A DNA stretch of 64,000 bases, from the IMG/VR virus record IMGVR_UViG_3300042514_001262, positions 1 through 64,000 of that record; one strand, 5' to 3'. The DNA is from a virus. Positions 1,290 to 43,167 of this stretch are shown in pieces. Each line of letters starts with the position of its first letter. Position 1 is the stretch's first letter. The position numbers and the translations under genes were made by a program. The notes below the pieces were generated by a model, which was not told the DNA's origin, did not search any database, and worked only from the letters and a program-made list of their open reading frames with translations.

Positions 1290-1369
1290 TTTCTAAAATT
1301 TATAATTGTTTATTTTTATAATACTTAAAAAGTAAGTTTTTTCTTTCTGGTGTAAATAGAATCAAGGAT

Positions 1370-1828: not shown

Positions 1829-1852
1829 AGAGTTTTGTTTCTATGGAGAATT
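1812..1852 (-). terminator. 13-bp hairpin plus U-tract overlapping the start codon of 1370..1828
   Basis: aattctccataga (1819-1831) pairs with tctatggagaatt (1840-1852), 8-nt loop; the minus strand continues into a T-run. Confidence 0.6.
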
Positions 1853-1880
1853 ATAAGATAGTTTTATAAAATGTGAATTT

Positions 1881-21503: not shown

Positions 21504-24185
21504 TTAAGGGTCAACACACGGTAATCCCCAAGTTAATTGTGTATAATATTCGTTTGGACTAAATTTTAAAATAATTTGGTCAACCAAACCACTAAATTGA
21601 ATAATACCATAACCTTCGTAACCGGATAAAGTTTGACTTGGGAGGTTGTATGTGATTTGATAACTAGGGTCACTAACCCCACTACAATAAATTGAGAATG
21701 ATGTGTTAGCCGACATTGTTACTGTAATTGCACTAAATCCATCATTACCTCCCAATGAATATATTGCTAATAACGGATTAAGTACAGGTTGCGAGAAAGT
21801 ATATGTGTACGTACTTGCACCACTAATACTTTGAGCGGTAGTATCTGGATTTTTATCAGAACACAATAATCTATTATATTCATACATCGGCTCTATTGAC
21901 ATAAGGCTTGATGAAGTTGAATTTAATGAAATGGTTCCTCCTCCATCTAAATCAAAATTACCACCAATCTCTAGATATTGGTCTCCAGTCTCTCCCGTCC
22001 AAGTTATCCATTTTGTACCACTGCAAGGTATATCACCTTGTGTTATAGTATGATTAGTTATTCCTTGAGATTGTGGGTTATTTGTCACACTATCACATGC
22101 TCCTCCTGTTATTGTAGGTGAAACTGTATTAATTAATATACTTTGTTCAAGTTTAGTAACACATGAATTAGGGGCAACCAGACCATTAGTTATAACCAAG
22201 TCCGACAACGAATTTCCTGATACAACATCATTATATCCCATAGTCACTGAATATAATGTTGTTGTTGTAGTTGTTCCTAATATCTCAGGTGAACAAAACG
22301 GTCTAGTCGTAGTGACTAAAGGTGTTGATGATTGTCCAACTACACTTAAAGTTGAATTGTTTTTCTTAACAATTGTAGTATCATTTATTGTACCAGTTCC
22401 CGGTGAATAATAATTTTTAATAGTATTAACATCTAATAAGAATGATATTGAAGTTCCAATCGGTAATGGTGGTGTTATATTAACATACCAGTTTGCCATT
22501 TCCGAGCCAGGCCCTAAATTAACAACATTATCTACAACCACCCCAATAGTATAATTCGCATTTTGACCTAAAGAAGTTATTGTTACAGTATTACTCAATG
22601 TGTTATTTACAGAATCTTTTGTTATTACAGTATAAGTTGATGAACCTAATCCTTGGAATACATTACTTGATTGGAATGTGATTCCACCATTTATTGAGTA
22701 TTGGTAAGGAGGTACTCCATAATTAGTCGTCAATGTTATTGAGCCATTATTAATTAATGGACAAGTTTGATTTTGTACTGTCGGTACAGACATTAGAGGC
22801 AAATATGGAGGACATGTGCCTGTTGTAACTTGAACTGTTGATTGTTGTCCAGGTCCTGCCATATACCACGCACTATCAGGAACATTTGATGTGTTTTGAC
22901 TAACAGGTATTGCAGGTGTGAATGTCCAACTTGGTATTTCCCACCTTGAGTTTTGTATTGACCACTGAATAACCAACTGTGTTTGACCATAAGTTCCTGA
23001 CCAAGCTGGTTTTCCGTTATAGTATCCGTCGTTCAAGTAGAATTGAATTGGCCCATAACTTGTAGTTGAACTTACATAAACTAAACACAAGTTAGGGTAC
23101 GACGGTGCTGGCGTATTTGTTGGAGTTGGTGTCATCGTAGTTGTTGGTGTTGGACTTATTGGGAATAAATCACAAACAATTGTTGTCGTATAATCACCAT
23201 AATAATCAACTACCGTAACCTCATAACTTCCTTGAGGGATTCCAACCAAAGTTTGACTTCTTTGTCCTCCCTCCCAATAGAATGAATATGGTGATGTTCC
23301 ACCCGTTACTTGGACTGCCAAAATACCATCACTTGAACTTGTGGATGTTGGAATCGCTAATGGATAACACTGAACTCCCATGTCAAATAATGTGAATGTT
23401 TCACAATCATTTTTTAATGTAACATAAGGACTATTACTCGGAGTAACCTTTGGAGTTGTGGTTGGTGTTGGAGTTGTGGTTGGTGTTGGAGTAATTGTTG
23501 GGGTTGGAGTTAGTGTTGGTGTGGTTGTTGGCGTTGGAGTTGGGGTTGGTGAAGCACATGTTGTAGTTGCAGGAACATTCAACTTTGTTACACCATTAAA
23601 TGGCTTTGTATAATCCATCAAAACTAATAAACCAACGGTTGTTCCTTGAATAAGGTTACCACAACAATCATAATAAATGTAATTACCCGTAGTAGTACCA
23701 CTACCACAGATAATTGGAGTTGTTGATGGGGTTGGAGTATTAGTTGATGTTATAGTTGGGGTTACAGTTTTTGTTGGAGTTGTTGTTGGTGTTTGAGTTT
23801 GTGTCGGTGTTATTGTTGGTGTTTGAGTTTGTGTCGGTGTTGTTGTAGGAGTAGTTGTTGATGTTTGAGTTGGAGATGGTGATGGTTCAACATAACAATC
23901 GTCAACTGTAGTACATAAACCGCCCACAACAAAACTTGAATTTGGTGGTAGGTTTGGTTGTATAGTACCACTAATACCATATTGATATTTTATATCAACA
24001 GGACTTTCAACACACAAATAAACTGTTGGTCCTGATGGTGTCATTGTATAAGTGTATGAACTCCAAATTTGATAAATCGGAATACCTTCAGCACCACAAG
24101 GTACGGTTACTAACCATAGGTCTTGCCCACCTTGGGTTAGGTCTAAATTTGATAAATTAACTTCAATACAATTACAACTTGACAT
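21504..24185 (-). CDS. Pro-Thr-linker, Cys-rich, SprB-repeat-containing putative appendage/adhesin protein
   Basis: Three (PT)n tracts; SprB-like units (DGILAVQVTGGTSPY..GSYEVTVVD; NGSITL..GVPPYQYSINGG..GLGSSTYTVITKD); ATG at 24185. Confidence 0.7.
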   Translation of the reverse strand: MSSCNCIEVNLSNLDLTQGGQDLWLVTVPCGAEGIPIYQIWSSYTYTMTPSGPTVYLCVESPVDIKYQYGISGTIQPNLPPNSSFVVGGLCTTVDDCYVEPSPSPTQTSTTTPTTTPTQTQTPTITPTQTQTPTTTPTKTVTPTITSTNTPTPSTTPIICGSGTTTGNYIYYDCCGNLIQGTTVGLLVLMDYTKPFNGVTKLNVPATTTCASPTPTPTPTTTPTLTPTPTITPTPTTTPTPTTTPKVTPSNSPYVTLKNDCETFTLFDMGVQCYPLAIPTSTSSSDGILAVQVTGGTSPYSFYWEGGQRSQTLVGIPQGSYEVTVVDYYGDYTTTIVCDLFPISPTPTTTMTPTPTNTPAPSYPNLCLVYVSSTTSYGPIQFYLNDGYYNGKPAWSGTYGQTQLVIQWSIQNSRWEIPSWTFTPAIPVSQNTSNVPDSAWYMAGPGQQSTVQVTTGTCPPYLPLMSVPTVQNQTCPLINNGSITLTTNYGVPPYQYSINGGITFQSSNVFQGLGSSTYTVITKDSVNNTLSNTVTITSLGQNANYTIGVVVDNVVNLGPGSEMANWYVNITPPLPIGTSISFLLDVNTIKNYYSPGTGTINDTTIVKKNNSTLSVVGQSSTPLVTTTRPFCSPEILGTTTTTTLYSVTMGYNDVVSGNSLSDLVITNGLVAPNSCVTKLEQSILINTVSPTITGGACDSVTNNPQSQGITNHTITQGDIPCSGTKWITWTGETGDQYLEIGGNFDLDGGGTISLNSTSSSLMSIEPMYEYNRLLCSDKNPDTTAQSISGASTYTYTFSQPVLNPLLAIYSLGGNDGFSAITVTMSANTSFSIYCSGVSDPSYQITYNLPSQTLSGYEGYGIIQFSGLVDQIILKFSPNEYYTQLTWGLPCVDP

Positions 24186-24243
24186 CAATTTTGTTTCTTA
24201 CTTTATAAGTATAATATTTAGTATTTTTATGTGTATATTTTAG

Positions 24244-24891
24244 TTAAGGACACAGAGTATAATTTATTATGGAACCACCGTTATCGACTTGTACTATGTA
24301 AAAACTACTACCAAATCCCATCTTAATATATTTGTTTACACCGTTGAATGGGTTATATAAAACTCCGCCCGCCAATGTTTGATAAACCGTTGCTCCAATA
24401 ACAGGTGTCAGGTTTGCTTGGCTGATATAAGTATAATAATTTACAATTGTCATTGTATCATTACAAGTATTTCCTGAAGAAACAGATAAATTATTACCAA
24501 TAGCATGATAAGCAACAACAGGTGTTGGAGTTGGTGTTGGTGTTTTTGTTGGTGTTATAGTTGGTGTTACAGTTTTTGTAGGAGTTACTGTTGGTGTTGC
24601 AGTTTTTGTTGGTGTTATTGTTGGTGTTATTGTTGGTGTGATAGTTGGTGTTGGTGTGACCGAAGTTGTAGGTGTCGGTGTTATTAAAATAACATGACCT
24701 ATTTCACAATTTTGTGTATCAACAATTTTAACAATAAAATCACTATAGTCATACGGGTCAGGCACATTAAAAGTATATGGGAATGTTGAAGCACTTGTAA
24801 CATAAACACAACTCGCACTCATAGAATCACAATAGTAGATGTCTACGGGTGTGTTAGCTGTTACAGATGATATAGTTACTTGTTCGCTCAT
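24244..24891 (-). CDS. small beta-domain plus PT-linker protein
   Basis: N-terminal domain ending KIVDTQNC, a TPT tract, then a C-terminal domain. Confidence 0.75.
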
Positions 24892-24901
24892 GTTTTATCT
24901 A

Positions 24902-25408
24902 TTATAATGGACTTGCCGTTGGAGTTATTGTTGGAGTCACAGTATTTGTTGGAGTAACCGTTGGAGTTATCGTTGGAGTTACTGTATTAGTAGGTGTAAC
25001 TGTGGTTGTTGGAGTTACTGTATTAGTAGGGGTGATTGTTGGTGTTGCAGTCCTTGTTGGAGTAACCGTTGGGGTCGCAGTCCTTGTTGGAGTAACCGTT
25101 GGGGTCGCAGTCCTTGTTGGAGTAACCGTTGGTGTTATTGTTGGAGTTACAGTTATTGTTGGTGTAACCGTTGGTGTTACATTTGGACACGGTTCAACAG
25201 AACCTATACCAGTTATTATACACCCATTGTCATCAATTATTTTTAACATATAAGCATCAGATGTATTATAAGGTGCCGGTATATCAAAAACATACGGTGC
25301 GGAAGATATGGTTGTCATATAAAAACAACCTGTGCCACCTGTTTGACATATATAAATGTCATATGGTAATTGTCCTGTAATTGTATATATTGAAACTTGT
25401 ATTGCCAT
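24902..25408 (-). CDS. small beta-domain plus long PT tail protein (paralog of 24244..24891)
   Basis: N-terminal domain ending KIIDDNGC; about 90-aa TPT tail with a 30-bp tandem repeat at ~25047-25132. Confidence 0.75.
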
Positions 25409-25411
25409 TTT

Positions 25412-27670
25412 TTAAGGACATCCGTTTAAAGTTAATGTGTAATCTACACCAACCACAGGTGGTGGGTTAAAATTATCTGCCCATGTTGCCCCCGGTAAAC
25501 TACCTAAAGGAACTGTTGATTGTAAACATCTTTGACCACCAGGAACAATTGGAGTATTAACAACTTGATATCCAGGACATGGTGTTGATAAGTTTGGTCT
25601 TATTGCCAACGAATGTCCAGTTGCTGTTGTAATATTTTCAAATAAATATTCATAACAAATTGGTGTGGATATACAAGTTTGACAATCATCATACTCTGTT
25701 TGGAATGCTGACGCAAAATAATCACCTGTATAAGTTAACGGTGTATATCCAATTGTTGCAATATAATTAGAACCAAATTGACCAAGATATGACCAACAAT
25801 TTCCACTTGAATCTTTAAATGTATTTCCAACAACACTTGTTATTGGTGATTGTACAGTTTGAATTACCTGTGTTGGAATTACAGGTTGTCCTCCACCACA
25901 TGTCTGATATACATAAACATAAGTTGGTGTTTGAGTTGGCGTTTTAGTTGGTGTTGGTGTTTGAGTTGGAGTTTTAGTTGGTGTCACACTAGGACTCGCC
26001 CCTGGCGTTGAAGTAGTTGTTGGTGTTGGTGTGTTCGTTGGGGTAATTGTTGGTGTAGTTGTTGGAGTAGGGGTAGTTGTTGGCGTAGGGTCAGGTAAAC
26101 AATTACCACATATTGAATATAACTGTGTAATACTTGTTAAGTTTGAATTTGATGATATGTTAGAATCGTCTCTATCATAAGTAACACATAAATTATTTCC
26201 GTTGATAACCGCGGACATTGTAATACCTGTAACAATTGGTATTCCATTAAATATCAAATTATCAGTAACATAGTATTCAACACCACTTACACAATCAACA
26301 AGGACTTTAACTGACACACAACTAAATGTTTCATCCAACATCACAAACGAAACTTGACCTGCAACTTCACAAGTTTTTGTTAATGTAACTGTCGGAGTAT
26401 TTGTTGGTGTCGGGGTTGTATTATTATAACTACAAATATTAAAGGTCATTCCAACATTACATGGTTGAGTTGGTGTTGGGGTTGGCGGTAAGAAAGATGA
26501 TGTAATTACAAAATCAACCTCATCACAAGGTATAGTCGGTGTAGGTGTTGGGACAGGTTCCCAATCACAATCAAAATAAGCCGTAAAGTCAAAGATATCA
26601 CAATTGATTGGTGAAGGTGTTGGAGTAGGACATGGTCCACTATTAAATAAATTCGCAGAAATATCAGGACAATTTGAATAACAAGGGTATGCGCCTTCAA
26701 GATAACAAGAACCACTTAAACTATTACTCAAACACCATCTATCACCTGTATAATATATTACACCATAATTGATACCGTCTCCCGAATAATAGAATTTAGC
26801 ATTATAAGTTCCAGCCTGTACATAGTTCCCACTATATCCTGAAAGTGATGGCAATGTCGTTCTTAGACAATATGTTGAACTACAAGGAGCAGGACTTGAA
26901 GTTATTGTTGGTGTAGGGGTTGGTGTTTTAGTTGGTGTAGGAGTTAGATTAATTGTTGGTGTTACTGTTGGTGTTGCAGTTTTTGTTGGTGTTATTGTTG
27001 GCGTTGCAGTTTTTGTTGGTGTTGGTGTAACTGTTGGAGTATTTGTTGGTGTTGGAGACGGGCATGTAATACAAGTCGCACAATCAACTTGAGGTCCTGT
27101 AAAGACACCTCCATTATAAATTGTTCCTGTTGAAGTATTAGCAACGACAGTCGCGCATCCTGTAAATCCACTATTAACAATATCCCAAACTTGTCCAACA
27201 GTTAAAGTACCGGGAACATTTTGAATTCTAAAAATGTTTGTTGGGTCACAACAATCTTGGAATTGATAGATGTCGTATGGTTCAGTTGGTGTGGGAGTTT
27301 GTGTCGGAGTATTTGTTGGTGTTTTTGTAACTGTAGGTGTTGGAGTGTTTGTTGGTGTTTCTGTAATAGTTGGTGTCGGAGTATTTGTTGGTGTTTCTGT
27401 AATAGTTGGTGTTGGGGTGTTTGTTGGTGTCGGAGTGTTTGTTGGCGTTTGACTTGGAGCTGGTTCCGCATTACATGTGGCACAATCAACATATGGTCCA
27501 TAATAATTGGTATTTGATATTGTTCCTGATATTCCTGTAGATTCCCAACATGATGATGATGAATAATCAAATAAAACAACACCTACAGTATAAATTGCAG
27601 TATCAACTAAAAAATCTTTAGTCGTCAAAGGAGTAGAACAGTTACTGAATCTTATTATTGCGAGTCCCAT
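25412..27670 (-). CDS. Cys-rich modules separated by PT linkers; putative virion appendage protein
   Basis: Repeated modules ending DCxTC (DCATC twice, DCQTC) plus ICGNC, with several TPT tracts. Confidence 0.75.
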   Translation of the reverse strand: MGLAIIRFSNCSTPLTTKDFLVDTAIYTVGVVLFDYSSSSCWESTGISGTISNTNYYGPYVDCATCNAEPAPSQTPTNTPTPTNTPTPTITETPTNTPTPTITETPTNTPTPTVTKTPTNTPTQTPTPTEPYDIYQFQDCCDPTNIFRIQNVPGTLTVGQVWDIVNSGFTGCATVVANTSTGTIYNGGVFTGPQVDCATCITCPSPTPTNTPTVTPTPTKTATPTITPTKTATPTVTPTINLTPTPTKTPTPTPTITSSPAPCSSTYCLRTTLPSLSGYSGNYVQAGTYNAKFYYSGDGINYGVIYYTGDRWCLSNSLSGSCYLEGAYPCYSNCPDISANLFNSGPCPTPTPSPINCDIFDFTAYFDCDWEPVPTPTPTIPCDEVDFVITSSFLPPTPTPTQPCNVGMTFNICSYNNTTPTPTNTPTVTLTKTCEVAGQVSFVMLDETFSCVSVKVLVDCVSGVEYYVTDNLIFNGIPIVTGITMSAVINGNNLCVTYDRDDSNISSNSNLTSITQLYSICGNCLPDPTPTTTPTPTTTPTITPTNTPTPTTTSTPGASPSVTPTKTPTQTPTPTKTPTQTPTYVYVYQTCGGGQPVIPTQVIQTVQSPITSVVGNTFKDSSGNCWSYLGQFGSNYIATIGYTPLTYTGDYFASAFQTEYDDCQTCISTPICYEYLFENITTATGHSLAIRPNLSTPCPGYQVVNTPIVPGGQRCLQSTVPLGSLPGATWADNFNPPPVVGVDYTLTLNGCP

Positions 27671-27836
27671 TAATATATTAATATACTAATAAATACCGAA
27701 AATTGAATTTTAAAAAAAAAAATAGATAAAATAAAATTTCATAGATACTATCCGTTTACAATGTATTCCATGTTATGGACATTTAATAGTAAATGATGTG
27801 ATAAATAAACACACCACTTAATTGTATTTATTGTAT

Positions 27837-28019
27837 ATGAAACTTATTAAAACAATTGAAAACATAATTAAAGAAGCTGAAGAACAATACAATTCTGCAT
27901 GCGAGAGTTGTGTTACGGTTGAAGAATTGGACCGTCTTGAAAAACATTATAAAGATTCATTAAAATTGATGAAGCTTTGTAAATCAAAAGAGGAAAAAAA
28001 TAAAGATAAAAAATCTTAG
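27837..28019 (+). CDS. small helical protein (60 aa)
   Basis: ATG at 27837 is 4 nt after TATTTATT (27825-27832); contains LIKTIENIIKE. Confidence 0.6.
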   Translation: MKLIKTIENIIKEAEEQYNSACESCVTVEELDRLEKHYKDSLKLMKLCKSKEEKNKDKKS

Positions 28020-28867
28020 TTTTTCTTCATAATCGCTTCGCATATTCCTTTTTCGGAATAAGTAACATATCCTTTAACTTGTAACCAAGAATAAATTTCA
28101 TCTTTATTTTCTTGAGTCAGATTATAATCCTCAAAGATTATGAAATTTGGTAATGAAACTTTTTTCTCATCAATACCCATGATTAGTTGAGCGTCTAATC
28201 CTTCAACATCAAGGTGTAACCAATCAATATACCCACCACATTCATTCAAAATTAAATCGGTAATACTAATTGAATTTCTTTTAGTGGATTTGATTTCTTC
28301 TTTTTCCCAATGTCTAATGACATTTTCAACCACAGTATTTGTATATCCTTGACCACCTTCATAGAATTCAACTTCACCACCATTTGGGGTCACCAATGCT
28401 TGAATTTTCTTAACCCTTGAGTTTTTAGAATAATTGTATTTTAAGTTCTGGAATTGTTTGTCTGATGCCTCAACCAAAATTACTTCACAATCTCTGTTTT
28501 TTACAATAGGTACCCATTCACCAAATTCACCATCGTGTGTTCCAATAACTAATCCACGAGGGAATTTTCCTTTGGAAAGTAAATTTTTGTTGTACATCCA
28601 TAGGGATTTATAAAAATGGTTTCCATGCTCCATAACATCCCACACTTTTTTATAAATCAACTTATCTTTTGAATCAGTTACTTCTACATCAAACATTTCT
28701 GTATTCGGATATGTTGCAAACCAGCTATCATTTAATTGTGTTGACCACTGAATATCTCCACTAACATGTTTTTTTATTTTCAGGTTGAGTGGTAGATTTT
28801 GATTGTAATTACTTACAATGCCAACATCCACTCTAATACCTTCTGAACTGTATTTTACACTTATCAT
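28016..28867 (-). CDS. FkbM-like methyltransferase with an extra N-terminal domain
   Basis: LVIGTHDG, ILVEA, IDWLHLDVEGLD, IIFE. Confidence 0.75.
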   Translation of the reverse strand: MISVKYSSEGIRVDVGIVSNYNQNLPLNLKIKKHVSGDIQWSTQLNDSWFATYPNTEMFDVEVTDSKDKLIYKKVWDVMEHGNHFYKSLWMYNKNLLSKGKFPRGLVIGTHDGEFGEWVPIVKNRDCEVILVEASDKQFQNLKYNYSKNSRVKKIQALVTPNGGEVEFYEGGQGYTNTVVENVIRHWEKEEIKSTKRNSISITDLILNECGGYIDWLHLDVEGLDAQLIMGIDEKKVSLPNFIIFEDYNLTQENKDEIYSWLQVKGYVTYSEKGICEAIMKKN

Positions 28868-29412
28868 ACCGTATGTTTTTCAATAAAATAATTTATATCT
28901 GCACTCCACAACAACATTGCCTCTTCTTTGATTTTACTTTCCTCCCAATCCCACCAACTTATTTCCAATAATTTTTCAATCTGTTTTTCATCAAATCTGA
29001 ACTTGATATGTTTGGCAGGGTTTCCACCGACAACAGAATAAGGTTGAACATCTTTGGTAACCACCGCACCTGCGGCAACAATTGCTCCATGACCGATTTT
29101 AATTCCTGACATGATTGTTGATTTGGCACCAATCCAAACATCGTTTCCGATGATGATATCACCTTTACATGAAGGGTGACCCATTTGCATGTGCATACTT
29201 GCAATTTCAGGTGTAACAGGTCCCCACAATTGGGATGATGTTGTTATCCAGTCAGGTCTATGATTTGCATGTAAGAAGAAACTACAATCTCTACCTATTG
29301 AACAATATTTTCCAACTTTAATTTTGTAATCATCACTCCAAGAAATTATATTGACATTTCTGTCGTAGTATGTTCCTCTATCTGCAATCCAAAGATGCAA
29401 GTTTTCTCCCAT
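28864..29412 (-). CDS. hexapeptide-repeat acetyltransferase (CatB/Vat-like family)
   Basis: VGKYCSIG, H.PDWITT, KGDIIIGNDVWIG, IGHGAIVAAGAVVTKDVQPYSVVGGNPAK, RF, WWDW. Confidence 0.9.
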   Translation of the reverse strand: MGENLHLWIADRGTYYDRNVNIISWSDDYKIKVGKYCSIGRDCSFFLHANHRPDWITTSSQLWGPVTPEIASMHMQMGHPSCKGDIIIGNDVWIGAKSTIMSGIKIGHGAIVAAGAVVTKDVQPYSVVGGNPAKHIKFRFDEKQIEKLLEISWWDWEESKIKEEAMLLWSADINYFIEKHTV

Positions 29413-29413
29413 A

Positions 29414-30865: not shown

Positions 30866-30884
30866 ATCTTTATGTTAATTTATA

Positions 30885-30918
30885 ATTGAAATATAAACAA
30901 CCACAACTATATTTCAAT
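30885..30918. promoter_or_regulatory. 11-bp inverted repeat forming back-to-back TATATTTC promoter-like elements
   Basis: attgaaatata (30885-30895) and tatatttcaat (30908-30918), between the divergent MTase and GT genes. Confidence 0.55.
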
Positions 30919-30933
30919 AAAAGAAAAATTATT

Positions 30934-33210: not shown

Positions 33211-33272
33211 ATCCTTATCTTGGATGGAATTGTCCTCTATGGAACAATAAGTCCAAGAACCATATCTACAAA

Positions 33273-33302
33273 AAAAAAATAACCCGTTTGGGTTATTTTT
33301 TT
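33273..33302. terminator. bidirectional rho-independent terminator
   Basis: aaaaaaataaccc-gttt-gggttattttttt between the convergent GT and Ser-collagen genes. Confidence 0.85.
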
Positions 33303-33408
33303 ACTCCAACTATTATAAATGTCTTTTGATTTTTTGTAATATGAACACACACAGTATTCATTACAATCATTTCATGGTCAATAAGGTTATGTCCATTCAC
33401 AACACCAA

Positions 33409-36400
33409 CTATTGAGTACAATTAGTATACGCCTTAAAAGTGTAACTAATTTTTACGTCTCTCGCGTCAGGTAAATCACTTACATTAAAACCTAAAAGGA
33501 ATAACACATTACAATCATCTAAAGTATCCTCAACTGTAAAACCTAAATTAAAACACGAAGTGTATGAGTCATCGTTTTTAAAATAATCAGTACGAGTAGT
33601 CAAATTATTTGTGGTGAAAGCGGTAGTAACTACCTCAGAACAAAGAAAATAATTTAAAGCAATATTTATCGCATTGGTTTCAGTTGCTCCTGAACAATAT
33701 ACAATACCACAGACCTCAATTTTGTCACCAACACTTAAAATATATGGATTTGGTATTCCGCAATTAACATATCGTGTACTTAAGGTAGGACTGTTTTGGA
33801 GATTTCTCACATTAAGGTCATATGAACAAGAATCCCAACCACATCGACTGTCCCCATACCAATAGTCTTCACTACTATTTGTTTCAGAATATGCAAAAGA
33901 ATGTGAAGCTATTAACCATTTTGAACCCACAGTTATATTAGCCTGACCTCCTCCACCATCTGTTGCAACAATACAACTACCTTGAAAATTCATTGCTGTT
34001 GTTGAAGACATTACAAATACATTTTCATCGTAGATAGTTAATGCTCCAGATGTTCCACTTGTTCCACTTGAACCATTAACACCACTTATACCGCTTGTTC
34101 CTGATGAACCATTAGTTCCGCTTGAACCTGAAGTACCTGATGAACCACTTGTTCCACTTGAGCCCGAGGCACCTGAAGAACCACTTGTTCCACTTGAGCC
34201 CGAGGCACCTGAAGAACCACTTGTTCCGCTTGAGCCAGATGAGCCGCTAGTCCCTGAAGAACCCGAAGTACCACTTGAACCTGAAGACCCACTAGTACCA
34301 CTTGAACCTGAATCACCTGATGAACCGCTAGTCCCTGATGAACCGCTAGTCCCTGATGAGCCAGATGAACCTGAGGTTCCACTTGTTCCTGAAGAGCCTG
34401 AAGCACCTGATGAACCGCTTGTTCCTGATGAACCGCTTGTTCCTGATGAACCACTTGTTCCTGAACTACCACTAGTACCTGATGAGCCAGATGAACCGCT
34501 AGTTCCCGATGAACCTGATGAACCTGATGAACCTGAAGCACCTGATGAACCAGATGAACCTGATGTTCCTGAACTACCACTTGAACCTGAGGTACCTGAA
34601 GAACCACTAGTTCCTGATGAGCCACTAGTTCCTGAAGAACCAGATGTTCCTGATGAGCCATTAGAACCCGAAGTACCGCTAGTTCCTGATGAACCTGAAC
34701 TACCTGAAGTTCCTGAAGAGCCAGATGAACCACTTGTACCCGAACTACCACTTGTTCCTGACGAACCTCTACATACACAATCTGTTGAAGTTATATCTGC
34801 GCTTCCACTAGTTACTTGCGGAGTTGTTATTGAGCAAACTTGTACGGTTTGACCAAACCCAAGAGTTAAACCTGAAGTACCACCAACACAACAATCGTCA
34901 TAACTAATATTGGTCTCAACTTCCTCTGCTCTGATACTCCATACATAACAAGTTAATCCGTCAATACCACTAGTTCCACTTGAACCTGAAGAACCACTAG
35001 TCCCTGAACTACCACTATTTCCTGAAGAGCCACTAGTTCCTGATGAACCGCTAGTTCCCGATGAACCTGACGAACCGTTAGAACCCGAAGTACCGCTTGA
35101 ACCTGATGTTCCTGAACTACCACTAGTCCCTGAAGAACCGTTAGAACCCGAAGTACCGCTTGAACCTGATGTTCCTGAACTACCACTAGTCCCTGAAGAA
35201 CCGTTAGAACCCGAAGTACCGCTTGAACCTGATGTTCCTGAACTACCACTAGTCCCTGATGAACCGTTAGAACCTGATGTTCCTGAAGACCCACTAGTTC
35301 CACTTGAGCCAGATGAACCACTTGTTCCTGAAGAACCACTTGAACCGCTAGTTCCACTTGAACCACTTGAACCACTAGTCCCTGATGAACCGTTAGAACC
35401 TGAAGTTCCGCTAGTTCCACTTGAGCCAGATGAACCACTAGTTCCTGATGAACCAGAAGAACCACTAGTTCCTGATGAACCAGAAGAACCACTAGTTCCT
35501 GAAGAACCTGATGTTCCACTACTACCGCTTGTCCCTGACGAACCTGATGTTCCATTAATTATACCTAACGTAGTTTGACCATATGAATAGTGAGTTGTAC
35601 CTTCGGTTACGAAAGTAATTGTATGTGATTGGTTTGATGTATTTGTAGATTGAACTTTAACTAATATCCTATCAGTAGTATTGATAGAAGAACCACTCTG
35701 AAATCCATCAGATAATACCATTGATGGATTTGGTGAATTTGTTGTTACAGGTACTGGGTCTGTTGAAAATAATAAAGTTTCAGTCCCACCTGTTGTTCTT
35801 GAATAAACTTCACAGAAAATATTAAAACTCGCATTATTATTTTCTTTATATGCGTGTAAGAAGAAAGACCAAATTCCCGCAGGTATAGTTGATACATTTG
35901 GATAATTTGAAGGTGTTAAATAGGATTGAATAGTTGATGTTACACCATTCGCAATCGTAACAGTTACCGTTTGTTGAGCACCACTTGTTGGTATAGGTGA
36001 AAATTCTTTATAAGGCGTTTGTGTTACTGACTCATTAAAATAATAAATAGCTCCACCTGAAATACCATTAACACCACTTGTTCCAGAAGTTCCAGAAGAA
36101 CCACTAGTTCCACTTGAACCAGATGAACCTGATGTTCCGCTTGTTCCCGATGAACCATTAGAACCTGAAGTTCCGCTTGTTCCACTTGAACCAGATGACC
36201 CACTAGTTCCTGAAGAACCACTAGTTCCTGAAGAACCACTTGAACCGCTAGTTCCACTTGAACCACTTGAACCTGAACTACCCGAAGTACCGCTTGAGCC
36301 AGATGAGCCTGAAGTTCCTGAACTACCCGAAGTACCACTTGAACCTGATGAACCGTTAGAACCCGAAGTACCACTTGAACCTGATGTTCCTGAACTACCA

Positions 36401-39400
36401 CTAGTTCCCGAAGAACCGCTTGAACCTGATGTTCCTGAACTGCCTGAAGTACCGCTTGAACCTGATGAACCACTATTCCCACTTGAACCTGAAGAGCCAC
36501 TAGTTCCTGATGAACCACTTGTCCCTGAAGAGCCAGATGAACCGCTAGTTCCACTTGAACCTGAAGACCCACTAGTACCACTCGAACCTGAGTCACCTGA
36601 TGAACCACTAGTCCCTGCTGAACCAGATGAACCACTTGTACCCGAACTACCACTAATTCCTGATGAACCTGAAGAACCGTTAGTTCCACTTGAACCTGAA
36701 GAACCGTTAGTTCCACTTGAACCTGAAGAACCACTTGTTCCTGATGAACCACTCTCTCCACTTGAACCTGAGGTTCCGCTGCTACCAGAATCACCCGGTG
36801 CTCCCTCAAGATTTATAGTCCAAACACAATACTGTGAATTACCGTTAAGTATTGATGTTATTTCAACAACAAACGCACCTGTTGTTGGGTTATACGATAC
36901 TATATCACCAGTAAACAAATTATTAACATCGTAAGCAACCAAGATTCCTTGCCCTATAGTCATACTTAAATTAGTAGTTCCTGTGAAATATATTAAATTA
37001 CCTATAGAATATGCCGAAAGAGTTAAACAAGTGTTTGATATTCCATTATATATTGGACTTACTCCTGAAGTCCCTGAACTACCACTTGTTCCACTTGAAC
37101 CTGATATTCCTGAAGAACCACTTGTTCCGCTTGAGCCACTAGTTCCGCTTGAGCCAGAAGTCCCTGAAGAACCTGAACTACCGTCAGTTCCGCTTGAACC
37201 GCTAGTTCCTGAAGAGCCGCTAGCTCCCGAAGAACCACTAGTTCCTGAAGAGCCGTTAGAACCTGAAGTTCCACTAGTACCACTTGAACCGCTAGTTCCT
37301 GAAGAACCACTAGCACCTGAACTACCACTTGTTCCGCTTGAACCAGAAGTTCCTGACGAACCACTTATTCCGCTTGAACCTGAAGTTCCCGACGAACCTG
37401 AACTACCACTAGTCCCTGAAGAACCGTTGGAACCTGAAGTTCCCGAACTACCGTCAGTTCCGCTTGAACCGCTAGTCCCTGAAGAACCACTAGCACCTGA
37501 ACTACCACTTGTTCCGCTTGAACCAGAAGTTCCTGACGAACCACTTATTCCGCTTGAACCTGAAGTTCCTGATGAGCCAGATGAACCGCTTGTACCCGAA
37601 CTACCACTTGTTCCTGAAGAACCACTATTTCCACTTGTCCCTGATGAACCACTTGTACCAGAAGAACCATCTGAACCCGAAGTACCACTTGAACCACTAG
37701 TTCCTGAAGAACCACTAGTTCCTGAAGAACCACTAGTTCCTGAAGAACCACTTGTACCAGAAGAACCATCTGAACCCGAAGTACCACTTGAACCACTAGT
37801 TCCTGAAGAGCCACTTGAACCACTCGAACCTGAGGCACCTGAAGAACCACTAGTCCCACTTGAACCTGACGCTCCGCTAGTACCTGACGAGCCATCCACA
37901 CCTGAAGTACCACTTGAGCCGTTAGTTCCTGATGAACCAGAAGTTCCTGATGAACCAGAAGTTCCTGATGAACCGCTAGTACCTGACGAGCCATCCGCAC
38001 CTGATGTACCACTTGAGCCGTTAGTTCCTGACGAACCAGAAGTTCCTGATGACCCACTTGAACCTGAGGTTCCGCTGCTACCAGAATTACCCGGTGCTCC
38101 CTCAAGATTTATAGTCCAAACACAATATTGCGAATTACCGTTAAGTATTGATGTTATTTCAACAACAAATTCTCCTGTTGTTGGGTTATACGATGCGACA
38201 TCGCCAGTGAACAAATTATTAACATCATAAGCAACCAAGATTCCTTGCCCTACAGTTATACTTAAATTAGTTGTTCCTGTGAAATATATTAAATTACCTA
38301 TAGAATACCCTGAAAGGGTTAAACAAGTGTTTGATGTTCCATTATATATTGGACTTATCCCTGAACTACCACTTGAACCAGAAGTCCCTGAAGAACCTGA
38401 GCTACCATCCGAACCGCTAGTTCCTGATGAACCTGAGCTACCATCCGAACCACTTGAACCATCTGTACCTGAACTACCGCTTGACCCGTTTGTACCTGAG
38501 CTACCACTTGTTCCACTTGAACCATTAACACCACTTATACCACTTGTTCCTGAACTACCGCTTGAACCTGAAGTTCCTGATGAACCACTTGTCCCTGATG
38601 AACCTGAAGTTCCAGATGAACCACTTGTCCCTGTACCACCTGTAAAATTGATTAAAACATTTCCACCACCTTGGTTAATAACCGTAGCACCTGAAAATGT
38701 CATACCTGTAACAGATGTTACAGTAACACCTGATGTGGAATCATATACCGTTAAAGAACCTGAACCTGAAGTAATACCTGTAACATTAACAACACTTCCA
38801 TCACTATTATTTAAAGTCAATGTTGAAGTACCGCTATTGTATGTTCCGCCAGTTATAGTTCCTGTGAATCCTGTAATTGTTACAGTACCACCCGTATTAT
38901 TATATAAATCTAAAATTTGTGTACCCGAAAAATATGTACCACCTGTAATTTGAACATCACTTCCCGAAAATATTCTCCATCTTGCATCATTATGTGAAAC
39001 ACCATTAACCCCTTCAATTGTGCTTCCTGTCCAAGAATTGATAAAATCTTTACCAGCTTGAGAACGATTGTTTACAATAGTACTATACTCAGAAGTAGTA
39101 ATAGCCGAACTACCAGTTAAACCTGTTACCGCATTCCATAAAGTGTCATAGTTCGGAATTGTATATTGATAAACAGTATCTGTTTCTTGAACATAAACCT
39201 GCATACCTAATCTTCTTCTACCTGAAGATATATTATCAGAGTTTAATGTAACAAAATCAGGTGAGAAAGCAGAACCAGTTCCTTTTGTAAAATTGATTGG
39301 AATAGTGTTTGCAGATAATTGAATGTTAGCAGGATAAGTTGTTGCCGTCAACACTAAATCTAAATCACTTAAGTTATAAACTTCCATGTGTCCACCTGTC

Positions 39401-39501
39401 TGTAATACAGAAAAGTTAGTACCGAAAGTGCTAGTCCTTACAACACTAGTAGGTCCTGCTAATTGAGCCGAAGATAGGGGGTTTTTATATGGAAATGACA
39501 T
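33409..39501 (-). CDS. 2030-aa Gly-X-Y (G-S-S/G-T-S) repeat fibre protein, collagen-like, with interspersed globular domains
   Basis: Five (GSSGTS)n blocks with Gly every third residue, separated by non-repetitive domains; N-terminal RRRLGMQVYV module. Confidence 0.85.
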   Translation of the reverse strand: MSFPYKNPLSSAQLAGPTSVVRTSTFGTNFSVLQTGGHMEVYNLSDLDLVLTATTYPANIQLSANTIPINFTKGTGSAFSPDFVTLNSDNISSGRRRLGMQVYVQETDTVYQYTIPNYDTLWNAVTGLTGSSAITTSEYSTIVNNRSQAGKDFINSWTGSTIEGVNGVSHNDARWRIFSGSDVQITGGTYFSGTQILDLYNNTGGTVTITGFTGTITGGTYNSGTSTLTLNNSDGSVVNVTGITSGSGSLTVYDSTSGVTVTSVTGMTFSGATVINQGGGNVLINFTGGTGTSGSSGTSGSSGTSGSSGTSGSSGSSGTSGISGVNGSSGTSGSSGTNGSSGSSGTDGSSGSDGSSGSSGTSGSDGSSGSSGTSGSSGSSGISPIYNGTSNTCLTLSGYSIGNLIYFTGTTNLSITVGQGILVAYDVNNLFTGDVASYNPTTGEFVVEITSILNGNSQYCVWTINLEGAPGNSGSSGTSGSSGSSGTSGSSGTNGSSGTSGADGSSGTSGSSGTSGSSGTSGSSGTNGSSGTSGVDGSSGTSGASGSSGTSGSSGASGSSGSSGSSGTSGSSGTSGSDGSSGTSGSSGTSGSSGTSGSSGTSGSSGTSGSDGSSGTSGSSGTSGNSGSSGTSGSSGTSGSSGSSGTSGSSGISGSSGTSGSSGTSGSSGASGSSGTSGSSGTDGSSGTSGSNGSSGTSGSSGSSGTSGSSGISGSSGTSGSSGTSGSSGASGSSGTSGSSGTSGTSGSNGSSGTSGSSGASGSSGTSGSSGTDGSSGSSGTSGSSGTSGSSGTSGSSGISGSSGTSGSSGTSGVSPIYNGISNTCLTLSAYSIGNLIYFTGTTNLSMTIGQGILVAYDVNNLFTGDIVSYNPTTGAFVVEITSILNGNSQYCVWTINLEGAPGDSGSSGTSGSSGESGSSGTSGSSGSSGTNGSSGSSGTNGSSGSSGISGSSGTSGSSGSAGTSGSSGDSGSSGTSGSSGSSGTSGSSGSSGTSGSSGTSGSSGSSGNSGSSGSSGTSGSSGTSGSSGSSGTSGSSGTSGSSGTSGSNGSSGSSGTSGSSGTSGSSGSSGTSGSSGSSGSSGTSGSSGSSGTSGSSGTSGSSGSSGTSGTSGSNGSSGTSGTSGSSGSSGTSGSSGTSGTSGVNGISGGAIYYFNESVTQTPYKEFSPIPTSGAQQTVTVTIANGVTSTIQSYLTPSNYPNVSTIPAGIWSFFLHAYKENNNASFNIFCEVYSRTTGGTETLLFSTDPVPVTTNSPNPSMVLSDGFQSGSSINTTDRILVKVQSTNTSNQSHTITFVTEGTTHYSYGQTTLGIINGTSGSSGTSGSSGTSGSSGTSGSSGSSGTSGSSGSSGTSGSSGSSGTSGTSGSNGSSGTSGSSGSSGTSGSSGSSGTSGSSGSSGTSGSSGTSGSNGSSGTSGSSGTSGSSGTSGSNGSSGTSGSSGTSGSSGTSGSNGSSGTSGSSGTSGSSGTSGSNGSSGSSGTSGSSGTSGSSGNSGSSGTSGSSGSSGTSGIDGLTCYVWSIRAEEVETNISYDDCCVGGTSGLTLGFGQTVQVCSITTPQVTSGSADITSTDCVCRGSSGTSGSSGTSGSSGSSGTSGSSGSSGTSGTSGSNGSSGTSGSSGTSGSSGTSGSSGTSGSSGSSGTSGSSGSSGASGSSGSSGSSGTSGSSGSSGTSGSSGTSGSSGTSGSSGTSGSSGASGSSGTSGTSGSSGSSGTSGSSGTSGSSGDSGSSGTSGSSGSSGTSGSSGTSGSSGSSGTSGSSGASGSSGTSGSSGASGSSGTSGSSGTSGSSGTNGSSGTSGISGVNGSSGTSGTSGALTIYDENVFVMSSTTAMNFQGSCIVATDGGGGQANITVGSKWLIASHSFAYSETNSSEDYWYGDSRCGWDSCSYDLNVRNLQNSPTLSTRYVNCGIPNPYILSVGDKIEVCGIVYCSGATETNAINIALNYFLCSEVVTTAFTTNNLTTRTDYFKNDDSYTSCFNLGFTVEDTLDDCNVLFLLGFNVSDLPDARDVKISYTFKAYTNCTQ
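34045..38637. repeat. five blocks of 9-bp/18-bp degenerate repeats (about 34045-34768, 34958-35555, 36056-36800, 37060-38096, 38357-38637)
   Basis: Higher-order exact units include a 63-bp period (35072, 35135, 35198, 35261) and a 180-bp period (37321 = 37501). Confidence 0.9.
36758..38356. repeat. ~300-bp direct duplication of a globular domain (36758-37060 and 38054-38356)
   Basis: Near-identical copies offset by 1296 bp, encoding SPIYNG..WTINLEGAPG. Confidence 0.9.
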
Positions 39502-39536
39502 ATTATATTTCGTTATTTATTAGTATATTATTATTA

Positions 39537-40637
39537 TTATGATTTAGTATCACCTTTAACCCAGAAAGTCGTTGTTAATGGAGGTGAAGATGGTTCAGAA
39601 CACAATTCATTCATCCACAACACTCTATATGTTCCAACAGGAATTGCACATCCACTTGGAACTACCACATTTACACCCGCATTTATAACATCAGGTACAC
39701 CATTATCAATTATTGATGTTGAACATGCATTACCTAATCCCACATCTAAAGTCATGTTGGTCATTGTTCCTCCAACACCAGATAAAGGTATCCAAACAGT
39801 ATATGTATATTGAATTGATGGGTTCACTTGTGATGTTGTCACAGGGATACTACTAAAACTATATTGATTTTGAGAACATCCATAAGAATCAACACCCGAA
39901 CCTGAAGATTGTCGTATTGGACCATTCAATGTTGATACGTTTGTTATGAAATTACCAACAGACCCTGTCCAACCTGAGAATTTAGCATAAATTGCCATAT
40001 CTGATGCGTAGTTTAGTCCCGCAGGTGTTCCACTATTACCCCATCCAAAGAAGGATACCGCACCTGTATCATACATATATTGACCCAAATTATTCAATGA
40101 TGTTGGGTCTTGAGGTTCAGGGAATAAATAAGCACTGAACGCTGCCGGACTCGGTGTTGGAGTATTTGTAGGTGTTGAGGTATTTGTAGGCGTTGCAGTA
40201 TTTGTAGGCGTCGGTGTTGGTGTTTGTCTTGTTGGTGTTACAGTTGGAGTTTGAGTTTGTGTTGGAGTTGTAGTATTTGTTGGTGTTGGGCTTGGAGATA
40301 ATCCTGGTGTAGGTGTTATAGTAGGTGTTATAGTTGGTGTCGCAGTATTTGTTGGTGTAGGTGTAGGTGTTTGGTTTGTTGGAGTAATACTTGGTGTTGG
40401 AGTAGGTGTTGGAGTAATACATTCAACATTTACAAGAACCCCATTCAACATTTCAGTTCTTGTTTGGTCTTCATAAACCAGTGTAGAACCCAAATAAACA
40501 TTAAATGGACCTAAAGCGCTTGAATTAGATGTTAATCTGACAATATATGTTGAACAACCCGATACCGTTATTTGCTGTTCAATTTCATTATCACAACCAA
40601 CAGCATTATTGGTAACGGTTATAGTGTATGTAGCCAT
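39537..40637 (-). CDS. two-domain protein with a long PT linker; putative virion protein
   Basis: About 90-aa TPT tract between beta-rich, Cys-containing domains. Confidence 0.75.
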
Positions 40638-40742
40638 CCTCGGTATTTTATTAAATAAATACCTTAAACGATTACTTTTATTTAGAAATTGGGAAAATTA
40701 AACAACTAATGAATTAAGTTAGTTGTTGTTAATATTGAAAAC

Positions 40743-41018
40743 CTATGTATCAAGTTCAACAATGATTTCAAATGCACATCCAAAGGTACAATCTAATATT
40801 TTGAATAATTCACAACCATTATCGTCAATCAATTTTAACATCACCTCAGGTGCCGTTTCAAAAATTGACGGGATTGTTGAATTGTAAGTTTGAACAGGAG
40901 GCACAGGTCCTGGATTTATTGTTGCAAGTTGATATTGGTTGTTTCCATAAACATCCGAAATAAAAACTTGAACCGGGTACGTAACTCCTGATATTTCTGT
41001 AATTCTTATTTGTACCAT
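40743..41018 (-). CDS. small beta-domain protein (distant paralog of the 24244/24902 N-domains)
   Basis: Contains MLKLIDDNGC. Confidence 0.7.
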   Translation of the reverse strand: MVQIRITEISGVTYPVQVFISDVYGNNQYQLATINPGPVPPVQTYNSTIPSIFETAPEVMLKLIDDNGCELFKILDCTFGCAFEIIVELDT

Positions 41019-41028
41019 TTTTTTATTT

Positions 41029-43167
41029 TTAACAAGTTAAACACATTATATCATAGACAATTATTAATTCAACAATAATTTCTTGTCCGTTTAATGTATT
41101 GTCACCAGATTTAGTGTTAATAGTTATTTGATTATTTAATGAATCAATTGTTACTCCTCCAACACCAGGAACAGTCAATAATAAATTTTTAACTGTATCA
41201 TAGTATAAGTTATCACTTGGTGCGCTAACCAATGTTGTACCTGTGAAGAAAGCATCGCTTGTTGTTAAACCTAATGGTTGTACACTCACATTAACACTAA
41301 ATACTGCAGATATCAAATCACAATTTGTTCCACCGCTAGTCAAATCGTTAAATCCTTCATTCAACATTTGAAGTAATCCATATTTTGTTTGTGATTGGAT
41401 TACAAATTGTTCTCCACCCATAACATATGTTTGATAAGAAACATATTGAGTTTGGCAATCTATATTTGTAGTTCTGCTTAATGAACACCCAATTGAATCA
41501 ACAACTGTTAAACTATATGTTCCGGCAGTTAGTCCTGTTATTTGTATTTGTTGTGGATTACCCTGAACATTATTTGACCAATTGAAATTAAATGGTGGTG
41601 TGCCTGTAGATATTAGAGCAGTTAAAGTTCCGTCCGAACCATTACCACATGAAGTGCTGTATAATGTAAAATCTAACGGGTCACTTTCACTAACATAAAC
41701 TTGTGTTGTTTGTGTACATCCTGTTGCATCTGTAACGGTAACAGTGTGTTGACCTGAAGAAACATTTGTAAATGTTATTGCCGAAAGTGTCGTGTTAAAA
41801 ACATTTTGAATCCCATCTAACGAATAATTGAATGGTGATTGCCCCCCATCTGTTTTTTCAACATAAACCGCACCATTACTTTGATTACAAGTTGTTCCTG
41901 TAATTTCAGTAGTAATTTCAAAAGAATTTGTTGCAAATAAAGTAATTTCATCCGTGTAAGAACATCCCGACGAATCTTGAATTACAACTGAATAAGTTCC
42001 TGTTGATAAATTACTAAATAATTGAGAAGTTTGACTATTAACAATATTAAGTGTGTTTCCATTGGGATATATTAAGGTGTATGTATATGGTGAAACCCCT
42101 CCAGCAACTGAAACGGTTATTGAACCGTCGGTACTTGAACATGTTGAACCTTGACTTGATATTGTAACTGAAGCAATCCCAAGTGGTGTTAGTAATGTTG
42201 TACTAACAACTATACTACAAAAAGCGGAATCTGTTACCGAAATTGAATAATCCCCCGCAGATAATCCTGAAATTGACCATGTTTGACCATATTGAATTTG
42301 AACATTACCTGTAGATGCAGAGTAATAATAAGGTGCAGTACCTCCAGTTATCTGAAGAGTTAAAACACCATCTGAAGAAAAACAAGTTGGTTGTGTCGCA
42401 GTAAACACACCAAACCCAAGAACATTAACATCAGTAACTACACCTGTTTGAGTTTGAGAACAACCCAAACTGTCTGTTACAACAACAGAATATGTCCCCG
42501 ATGTTAATCCCGTAATACTACTTGTTGTGAACCCATTACTCCATAGATATGTGTAAGGTGCAACTCCTGTTTGTCCAGTTACAATAATTTTTCCAATTGG
42601 CGTTCCCCCGCAACTTGAATTTGGAACAACATATAAACCATAATTAAAAGGTCCACTATCTTCCACAATAAAATCAGATGTCTTACCTGTACATCCCCCT
42701 AAATCTTGGGCTATCATATAATATGTTCCCGCAGTTAAATTGCCAAAAACTATGTTTGATGTATTAGTGTTTCCTGAATTTATGTATGTATTGTCGGACA
42801 AATATAAATAAAAATTTGTTGACGAATAATTTGAAGAAGATGTGCTCGTTACCGAACCATTATCCAAACCACATGTGGTATTTTGGACTGAAAGTACACT
42901 CGCACATACACCTGAAGAAACAGGGATGTTAATATAAAATTGTAAGTTTGTCGGTACGGTACTATCATTAACATTTACCGCATATGTATCAGCACTTAAT
43001 GAAGTTCTGATAGATGGATTAGTTGTTACAACATCAACACCCAAATTAGGTGATACCCATTGAACAGTATAGGGCGGTGTTCCTCCCGTTAGATATAATT
43101 CGACGGCACCAGAATTTGTATTCTGACAATCTCCCGTTATTATAATATTATAATTAAATGCCGACAT
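41029..43167 (-). CDS. SprB-repeat protein
   Basis: About seven units of C..(D/N)G.(I/L).....G..P(Y/F).Y.....L..G.YSV.V.D..GC. Confidence 0.8.
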   Translation of the reverse strand: MSAFNYNIIITGDCQNTNSGAVELYLTGGTPPYTVQWVSPNLGVDVVTTNPSIRTSLSADTYAVNVNDSTVPTNLQFYINIPVSSGVCASVLSVQNTTCGLDNGSVTSTSSSNYSSTNFYLYLSDNTYINSGNTNTSNIVFGNLTAGTYYMIAQDLGGCTGKTSDFIVEDSGPFNYGLYVVPNSSCGGTPIGKIIVTGQTGVAPYTYLWSNGFTTSSITGLTSGTYSVVVTDSLGCSQTQTGVVTDVNVLGFGVFTATQPTCFSSDGVLTLQITGGTAPYYYSASTGNVQIQYGQTWSISGLSAGDYSISVTDSAFCSIVVSTTLLTPLGIASVTISSQGSTCSSTDGSITVSVAGGVSPYTYTLIYPNGNTLNIVNSQTSQLFSNLSTGTYSVVIQDSSGCSYTDEITLFATNSFEITTEITGTTCNQSNGAVYVEKTDGGQSPFNYSLDGIQNVFNTTLSAITFTNVSSGQHTVTVTDATGCTQTTQVYVSESDPLDFTLYSTSCGNGSDGTLTALISTGTPPFNFNWSNNVQGNPQQIQITGLTAGTYSLTVVDSIGCSLSRTTNIDCQTQYVSYQTYVMGGEQFVIQSQTKYGLLQMLNEGFNDLTSGGTNCDLISAVFSVNVSVQPLGLTTSDAFFTGTTLVSAPSDNLYYDTVKNLLLTVPGVGGVTIDSLNNQITINTKSGDNTLNGQEIIVELIIVYDIMCLTC

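Follow-up and report, generated by a model that had tools for sequence, protein, structure and literature searches.

A TibC-type glycosyltransferase fusion linked to proline-free collagen-like fibres in tailed phages: a candidate cytoplasmic O-glycosylation module

Here we analysed the first 64 kb (positions 1 to 64,000, called the window throughout) of the IMG/VR virus contig IMGVR_UViG_3300042514_001262, a record of 101,887 bases, and concentrated on a block at 28016-39501 that comprises four enzyme genes of glycan type and the gene of a 2030-residue collagen-like fibre protein. Comparison of gene content suggests, with a probability that we put at roughly two in three, that this fibre is the glycosylation substrate of a cytoplasmic O-glycosylation module encoded by the phage itself. 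The four enzymes together hold three glycosyltransferase-type domains, one of them predicted from its modelled fold, two methyltransferases dependent on S-adenosylmethionine (SAM) and one acetyltransferase, and the central one among them is a fusion of a GT4 glycosyltransferase domain with a domain of the TibC/Aah type (BAHT).

The evidence that carries this proposal is the linkage between the enzyme and the fibre across phages. Relatives of the BAHT domain number more than 200 in IMG/VR, and among the best 80 loci, which were examined at 45-74% identity, 24 contain a large collagen-like open reading frame (ORF) whose X and Y positions are 76-100% Ser or Thr, nearly always arranged as Gly-Ser-Ser or Gly-Thr-Ser triplets (GSS/GTS). 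When loci with full 10-kb flanks are considered, 10 of the 21 have a collagen-like ORF of this type. The closest relatives keep, like the window, the FkbM, acetyltransferase and other tailoring genes on one strand and the glycosyltransferase fusion on the other, with the GSS/GTS gene on the strand opposite to the glycosyltransferase gene, 0-4 kb away from it and often directly convergent with it. More distant loci place the cassette between the gene of the major head protein and those of the myovirus tail sheath, tube and baseplate hub.

The same association was recovered in the reverse direction, in which IMG/VR was scanned with a degenerate DNA pattern for (GSSGTS)3 and the whole records were then searched for the enzyme, with patterns for proline-type collagen and for the Thr-Pro linker (which matches the Pro-Thr, or PT, genes of the window itself) as controls. 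The enzyme was found at 30-53% identity in 22 of the 75 (GSSGTS)3 records, against 1 of 47 proline-type collagen records, that one also containing GSSGTS, and 2 of 48 Thr-Pro linker records (Fisher P = 8e-5 and P = 4e-4, respectively). For records at least 90% complete the proportions were 5/6, 1/9 and 0/5, the first being significantly greater than that of the pooled controls (1/14; P = 0.002), and the GSS/GTS gene was located within 10 kb of the enzyme gene in 12 of the 20 positives examined. Because of this difference between the (GSSGTS)3 records and the two sets of control records we consider the enzyme gene to be linked specifically to that of the Gly-Ser/Thr-Ser fibre, in phages as distant as 30-50% identity, since collagen-like repeats of another kind do not show the association. 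The sequence-only reading of the window had proposed that the phage glycosylates its own fibres, Pro-Thr "mucin-like" proteins included, and had pointed to co-occurrence across related phages as one way to check it. This check favoured the GSS/GTS genes and went against the PT proteins, as PT-rich ORFs appear in 3 of the 80 forward loci and the enzyme is about as frequent in PT records (2/48) as in the other controls (1/47), and PT linkers were consequently rejected as general substrates.

The GT4-BAHT fusion is encoded on the plus strand at 30934-33210 (758 residues) and matches Pfam GT4 and GT9, TIGR04414 and the TibC structure 4rap. Its frame is open from a TTG at 30886, and since the alignments of homologues begin at residue 17, translation probably starts at the ATG at 30934. 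The GT4 domain gave a match to PF00534 with an E-value of 3.5e-16 (59.6 bits against a gathering cut-off of 26.4; residues 199-322). The BAHT domain (32086-33210, plus strand), in which alignment with TibC delimits a beta-barrel, a catalytic domain and a four-Cys iron-finger motif, scored 201.4 bits with TIGR04414, a narrow margin above the equivalog cut-off of 200, over residues 411-768 and profile positions 4-371 of 374. At the sequence level (phmmer) it also matched the TibC structure (PDB 4rap) with E-values of 2e-32 and 8e-32, from residue 23 to 383 of the 406 of TibC, so that the full architecture of a BAHT protomer was covered, including the N-terminal beta-barrel, the GT-B catalytic domain and the iron-finger insertion. 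WaaC and WaaF, the heptosyltransferases of lipopolysaccharide (LPS), were absent from the structures matched by the domain even at an E-value of 10. The earlier assignment to an Aah/TibC-like glycosyltransferase is hence borne out by the score above the cut-off and by the full-length match to TibC.

To evaluate the conservation of functional residues we took their roles from the paper describing the TibC structure and counted them in 91 distinct viral homologues. In TibC, Asp110 is the catalytic base, Thr226 and Lys230 are assigned to the beta-phosphate, Trp305 to the heptose O4, and Cys339, Cys342, Cys358 and Cys370 bind iron (PMC4358343). The equivalents of D110, T226, K230 and W305 are kept in the window protein and in 99-100% of the homologues, and the four iron-finger Cys are all aligned in the window protein, each of them being kept in 87 of the 91. 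The position equivalent to Pro300, related to stereoselectivity, is Ser as in Aah. Other viral loci conserve the GT4-BAHT fusion at full length with 51-80% identity, and at the Joint Genome Institute (JGI) the enzyme group, in which GT4-BAHT fusions predominate, amounts to about 2,000 protein clusters at 90% identity, bearing the label "autotransporter strand-loop-strand O-heptosyltransferase" after TIGR04414. By homology, then, the enzyme is a true Aah/TibC-family protein O-glycosyltransferase, in which the N-terminal GT4 fusion may alter the ring-shaped dodecamer assembly of BAHTs. Directly downstream of the fusion, several related loci carry a second and shorter BAHT paralogue of about 292 residues (L008:11128-12006, L015:11119-12015, L018:11071-11949) that matches residues ~490-768 only and therefore has no beta-barrel; the window has no such paralogue.

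The fibre gene (33409-39501, minus strand) is convergent with the glycosyltransferase gene and encodes a modular, proline-free collagen-like (Gly-Ser/Thr-Ser)n protein, to which the Pfam Collagen family (PF01391) matches in 19 stretches with an E-value of 1.3e-149. The protein described in the sequence-only reading as a Gly-Ser-Thr repeat protein is present and is more exactly a collagen-like Gly-X-Y protein. Taking runs of six or more triplets, we counted 380 Gly-X-Y triplets, among them 190 GSS and 128 GTS, the longest run having 116. Ser occupies position Y in 344 of the 380, the X and Y positions are 91% Ser or Thr, and Pro amounts to 1% of the protein, so that the fibre is poor in the proline, hydroxyproline or charged X/Y residues that stabilise a collagen triple helix. 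The invariant Ser codons at position Y belong to both families (TCN in 192 cases, AGY in 152) and the DNA repeats are only 65-80% alike, which indicates that the frame is coding and that Ser itself is under selection. On the strength of this mixture of Ser codons, and of conserved globular modules set between the repeats, we rejected an explanation of the ORF as an artefact of non-coding sequence.

Six such globular modules interrupt the repeats of the fibre, and for several of them there are counterparts in the GSS/GTS proteins of contigs that are unrelated. An 84-residue module is found twice in the fibre (residues 384-467 and 816-899; window 36807-38352) with 92% identity between the copies, and at 27-51% identity in the GSS/GTS proteins of other contigs (L008, L327, L337, L335, L342 and L047). 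Other contigs likewise share a module of 165 residues and the C-terminal domain of the fibre. The fibre is the sole GSS/GTS gene in the 102-kb record. An AlphaFold2 (AF2) model of its C-terminal domain, built from a two-sequence alignment, reached a pLDDT of 51, too poor for a fold search, and in the ESM Atlas the N- and C-terminal domains found only unnamed viral clusters with scores at the level of leads. Scans of the PT proteins and of the neighbouring large proteins against PHROG gave only matches of unknown function or driven by the repeats, which leaves the fibre and the PT proteins as putative parts of the virion.

The linkage extends beyond phages. In a scan of bacteria with one genome per species, classical BAHTs at about 30% identity turned up in taxa such as Burkholderiales, Bradyrhizobium and Pandoraea, where large genes follow them immediately, and those large genes that were checked encode AIDA/autotransporter proteins. 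This is the known arrangement of enzyme and substrate, and its recovery acts as a positive control for taking a neighbouring gene to be that of the substrate. Other bacterial relatives, at 32-50% identity, have GSS/GTS collagen-like genes on their flanks, and some of these are probably phage contigs inside metagenome-assembled genomes (MAGs). The 5.18-Mb chromosome of an Arenicellales MAG (OZ244198.1; L351:8516-12586) has small GSS/GTS genes on both sides of a BAHT-like gene, and a similar arrangement is seen in several gammaproteobacterial MAGs; the bacterial loci of this kind (L351, and also L350, L353-L355 and L357) have a G+C content of 46-64% and collagen-like genes of 126-226 residues. 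One small GSS/GTS gene flanking the enzyme in bacterial chromosomes encodes a CarboxypepD_reg-like domain. These chromosomal pairs indicate that the pairing between the enzyme and GSS/GTS genes is not confined to phages. A FastTree phylogeny of 175 domains contains one branch (SH-like support of 89) that splits the autotransporter-type from the collagen-linked BAHTs: of the 27 rows in which the next gene downstream is large, 26 fall on one side of it, and 44 of the 45 collagen-linked enzymes fall on the other. The tree was built by a rapid method, has long branches and is heterogeneous in composition, and this split is accordingly indicative only.

The pairing is also found in a cultured virus, the Microcystis phage Mel-JY01 (PP395634.1), which makes the idea directly testable. 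The enzyme is there part of a 1226-residue fusion annotated as "methyltransferase FkbM", and bases 2-3052 of the plus strand contain a GSS/GTS (GTR/GTD) collagen-like ORF of at least 1016 residues, open at the start of the record and directly upstream of a "structural protein" and of the TibC-like fusion. In GenBank most of this repeat is annotated in antisense, where it yields two Pro-x-x "hypothetical proteins" (1-651 and 739-2298), and the plus strand has only the last 178 codons called, as a gene of their own (2519-3052). Comparison of the cassette with GenBank phages by blastn returned no match, and tblastn returned four records only, namely Mel-JY01 and three huge uncultured phages.

Placing these results into a mechanism, the BAHT domain would add the first sugar, from ADP-heptose or another donor, to Ser of the (Gly-Ser/Thr-Ser)n fibre. 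The acceptor of TibC is Ser and not Thr (PMC4358343), and since 344 of the 380 triplets end in Ser this near-invariant residue at position Y is the likely site, with several hundred Gly-X-Ser serines on offer. Glycosylation would start in the cytoplasm, before or during assembly of the fibre; the fused GT4 domain and the GT-A-fold domain predicted in one of the tailoring proteins would then lengthen the glycan, and the two or three methyltransferases and the acetyltransferase would finish it. The virion would in consequence bear a collagen-like fibre that is free of proline and covered with sugar, and the glycan may stabilise a triple helix devoid of proline, confer protease resistance, or serve in shielding or adhesion. 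We infer in this way the substrate, the site, the order of the steps, the location on the virion and the function, whether helix stabilisation, shielding or adhesion.

Several observations weigh against this mechanism. The support for it is comparative genomics only. Where the flanks are complete, about one locus in two is devoid of a GSS/GTS gene over 10 kb on either side, and one GSS/GTS record that is 98% complete lacks the enzyme. The enzyme and the fibre genes both reside in hypervariable structural regions, and their co-location could for that reason be inflated. In the case of the donor, Arg286 of TibC contacts the adenine N1 and was proposed as the basis of the specificity for ADP-sugars (PMC4358343), while the equivalent residue is Val in the window protein, T, V or L in most homologues and Arg in 4 of the 91, the column not being fully certain owing to an alignment gap just upstream. 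Genes of the heptose pathway or of sugar-nucleotide synthesis (SIS_2, NTP_transferase and CTP_transf_like) were not found in the 102-kb record, whose completeness is about 33%. Finally, an extended Gly-X-Y chain is unlike the beta-helical strand-loop-strand substrate of the known BAHTs.

An unlikely alternative, though the least unlikely of three, is that in the course of infection the cassette alters envelope glycans of the host, either its capsule or the core or O-chain of its LPS, which might serve to block superinfection. A published study of pelagimyophages read the glycosyltransferases in their hypervariable tail-fibre and host-recognition region as modifiers of the host LPS O-chain, and noted rfaE among the phage genes (PMC7029224); GT9 also includes the LPS heptosyltransferases, and O-antigens typically bear methyl and acetyl tailoring. 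These arguments have to be set against the fit of the domain to the protein-specific Aah/TibC model and to the TibC structure, beta-barrel and iron finger included, when WaaC and WaaF remain unmatched. The enzymes of the cassette are moreover all soluble and accompanied by no membrane or lipid-carrier genes, and a host-directed role leaves unexplained the GSS/GTS linkage seen both in phages and in bacterial chromosomes.

We also judge it improbable that the collagen-like protein is spared and that the enzymes act on other proteins of the virion, such as the PT linkers or, as in mycobacteriophages, subunits of the capsid and tail. In favour of this idea, the window and a few close relatives (L007, L010 and L021) have the cassette flanked by PT-linker proteins, five of them in the window, and in distant loci it lies between genes of the head and of the tail sheath. 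Many secreted bacterial proteins, moreover, carry O-glycans on their PT linkers. The rarity of PT-rich ORFs in the forward loci and the control-rate occurrence of the enzyme in PT records speak against it, as does the absence of Thr activity in TibC, the PT linkers being Thr-rich and Ser-poor. Least probable, in our view, is a merely positional linkage within a shared hypervariable structural island by an enzyme with an unrelated target (DNA, a small molecule or a host protein), for which the full-flank loci without a nearby GSS/GTS gene and the highly variable gene content around the enzyme could be invoked, but the association holds at the level of whole records against two repeat-protein controls, is still seen when the enzymes are only 30-40% identical and in bacterial chromosomes, where small GSS genes lie on both sides, and follows one clade of the enzyme tree.

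Going further than a glycosylated fibre in this phage, a wider set of propositions may be entertained tentatively, and as a whole we regard it as possible but doubtful. Proline-free (Gly-Ser/Thr-Ser)n chains would constitute a distinct class of "glyco-collagen" in phages and some bacteria, with a sugar-sheathed triple helix stable only through a dedicated BAHT clade that hyperglycosylates the Y-position Ser, the sugar replacing hydroxyproline. The donor would not be ADP-heptose, such fibres would be widespread on the virions of aquatic phages, and the glycosyltransferases in the host-recognition clusters of myophages from the sea and from fresh water, to which a role on host LPS has been ascribed, would act on the virion.

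Examination of the remaining enzymes of the cassette, for each of which a family match was found, supports the earlier description of four glycan-type enzymes at 28016-33210; indeed every element of that gene list was recovered where it had been placed. The FkbM-family methyltransferase (28016-28867, minus strand; PF05050, 5.6e-9) adjoins the acetyltransferase gene in 11 loci. The acetyltransferase (28864-29412, minus strand; PF00132), likewise conserved in 11 loci, is an XAT-like enzyme of hexapeptide repeats forming a left-handed beta-helix. Its identification as an equivalog of the CatB or Vat resistance proteins was discarded, the scores (150.8 bits with CatB and 144.8 with Vat; E = 1e-44) lying far below the respective cut-offs of 350 and 300. 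The gene at 29414-30865 (minus strand) encodes a SAM methyltransferase over residues ~1-180 (PF08241) followed by a domain at residues 182-483 that is without a Pfam match. This C-terminal portion of about 300 residues is predicted to take a GT-A-type fold, as its AF2 model (pLDDT 92) gave weak Foldseek matches to glycogenin, the glycosyltransferase domain of LH3, GT6 and KdsB (E-values from 5e-5 to 1e-3, TM 0.36-0.40), and in distant loci it exists as a stand-alone 300-residue gene adjoining the glycosyltransferase fusion. Accessory genes differ among loci and include an aminotransferase fragment, further acetyl- and methyltransferases, a nucleotidyltransferase and DUF6625, a variety that is expected of a glycan-building island. 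A sequence check found no hydrophobic segments in any of the four cassette enzymes, and the block contains no genes for a flippase, a polymerase or an oligosaccharyltransferase.

The source of the record is a large, uncultured tailed phage of aquatic origin with a baseplate wedge gene at 55649-57487, and other phage genes are present, including those for a ribonucleotide reductase, a DnaB-type helicase, a UvsX-like recombinase, SbcCD, a primase and a sigma factor. The record has an estimated completeness of about 33% according to CheckV and a G+C content of about 32%, and its minus strand holds nearly all the genes, the glycosyltransferase fusion being the one exception within the block. A divergent intergenic region of 68 bp (30866-30933) separates this gene from the tailoring operon. 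A palindromic promoter-like element, TTGAAA-16-TATATT, is found at 30886-30917 and reads identically on both strands, which we report as a description only; scans for promoters and terminators around the cassette detected promoter-like sites at chance frequency.

The block is surrounded by Pro-Thr proteins on both sides, in agreement with the sequence-only reading, there being four genes with PT-rich runs on one side and one on the other, all on the minus strand. The four encode PT-linker, Cys-containing proteins (21504-24188, 24244-24891, 24902-25408 and 25412-27670) matching PHROG 15511, of unknown function, and the fifth lies at 39537-40637. Each of the five has 57-185 residues within PT-rich runs, and their translations show the linkers to be rich in Thr and poor in Ser. 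These proteins are unusually rich in Cys (4.8% in that at 25412-27670), and the short globular modules between the PT runs all match PHROG 15511. A minus-strand ORF of 91 residues is also contained in 39537-43167. The SprB/Ig-like repeat protein itself (41029-43167, minus strand), also predicted beforehand, was confirmed by a match to SprB repeats with an E-value of 2e-25. Its Ig-like repeats match the Hoc-like head-decoration family phrog_2973 (5e-18), and the protein could be a capsid or fibre decoration instead of a part of the tail.

The closest known systems are the TibC-TibA and Aah-AIDA-I pairs of E. coli (TIGR04414; PDB 4RAP/4RB4; PMC4358343), and the phage domain is homologous to the whole TibC protomer. 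The catalytic Asp, the beta-phosphate Thr and Lys, the Trp of the sugar O4 and the four iron-finger Cys are kept, and in both cases a soluble enzyme is encoded beside a long, repetitive, Ser-rich candidate substrate. The phage enzyme differs in being phage-encoded and fused behind a GT4 domain, in its neighbour, which is a Gly-X-Y collagen-like protein and not a beta-helical autotransporter (no autotransporter is present), in not conserving Arg286, and in its placement across the main division of the family tree.

Hydroxylase-glycosyltransferases of the LH3 and Mimivirus L230 type are a case in which a virus modifies its own collagen-like protein by a chemistry that needs hydroxylysine. The repeats of the window fibre have neither Lys nor Pro, and no oxygenase gene is present. 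Some BAHT loci carry Pro-rich collagen genes (GPT, GPQ, GPI and GPK) instead (L022:1-6776, L027:1-7310, L319:16823-19999). L022 encodes an 823-residue fusion of a glycosyltransferase with a 2OG-Fe(II) oxygenase as well as a separate 2OG oxygenase, and L027 has the same two gene clusters, so that in these two related loci an enzyme fusion that recalls LH3 and L230 stands beside Pro-rich collagen genes.

To our knowledge, virion glycosylation is documented in very few phages, and the enzymes that modify the collagen-like protein BclA of Bacillus are not BAHTs. The collagen-like regions of BclA carry short O-glycans built with methylated sugars, and they resemble the present case in being a prokaryotic Ser/Thr-rich Gly-X-Y fibre with a glycosyltransferase gene nearby (PMC12357932). 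The BclA repeats are mostly GPT, whereas the phage fibre is almost without Pro. In mycobacteriophages, as far as PMC12619734 summarises the work of Freeman et al. 2023, virions are glycosylated by phage-encoded glycosyltransferases that decorate the structural proteins of the phage itself. The glycans are located in that summary on the C-termini of capsid and tail-tube subunits, with a different enzyme family and target, and a collagen-like substrate plays no part. The literature that we searched contained no paper combining a heptosyltransferase, a collagen-like protein and a phage, and none on a phage system of the TibC type. The earlier statement that no such system had been described in phages consequently stands, qualified by the JGI label and by the LPS-directed reading of the pelagimyophage genes. 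What is new is the enzyme-fibre pairing and the host range; the enzyme family and the type of modification are known.

If the proposal is true, protein glycosylation by a whole clade of this enzyme family, so far associated with proteobacterial adhesins only, would be commonplace among aquatic phages, and the very long collagen-like fibres of these phages would be glycoproteins. This would bear on host recognition, on the stability of the particles, on their stickiness to organic matter and on escape from proteases or grazers. The published view of these transferases as remodellers of host LPS would need revision, and protein chemists would have at their disposal a natural proline-free collagen scaffold together with its own modifying enzyme.

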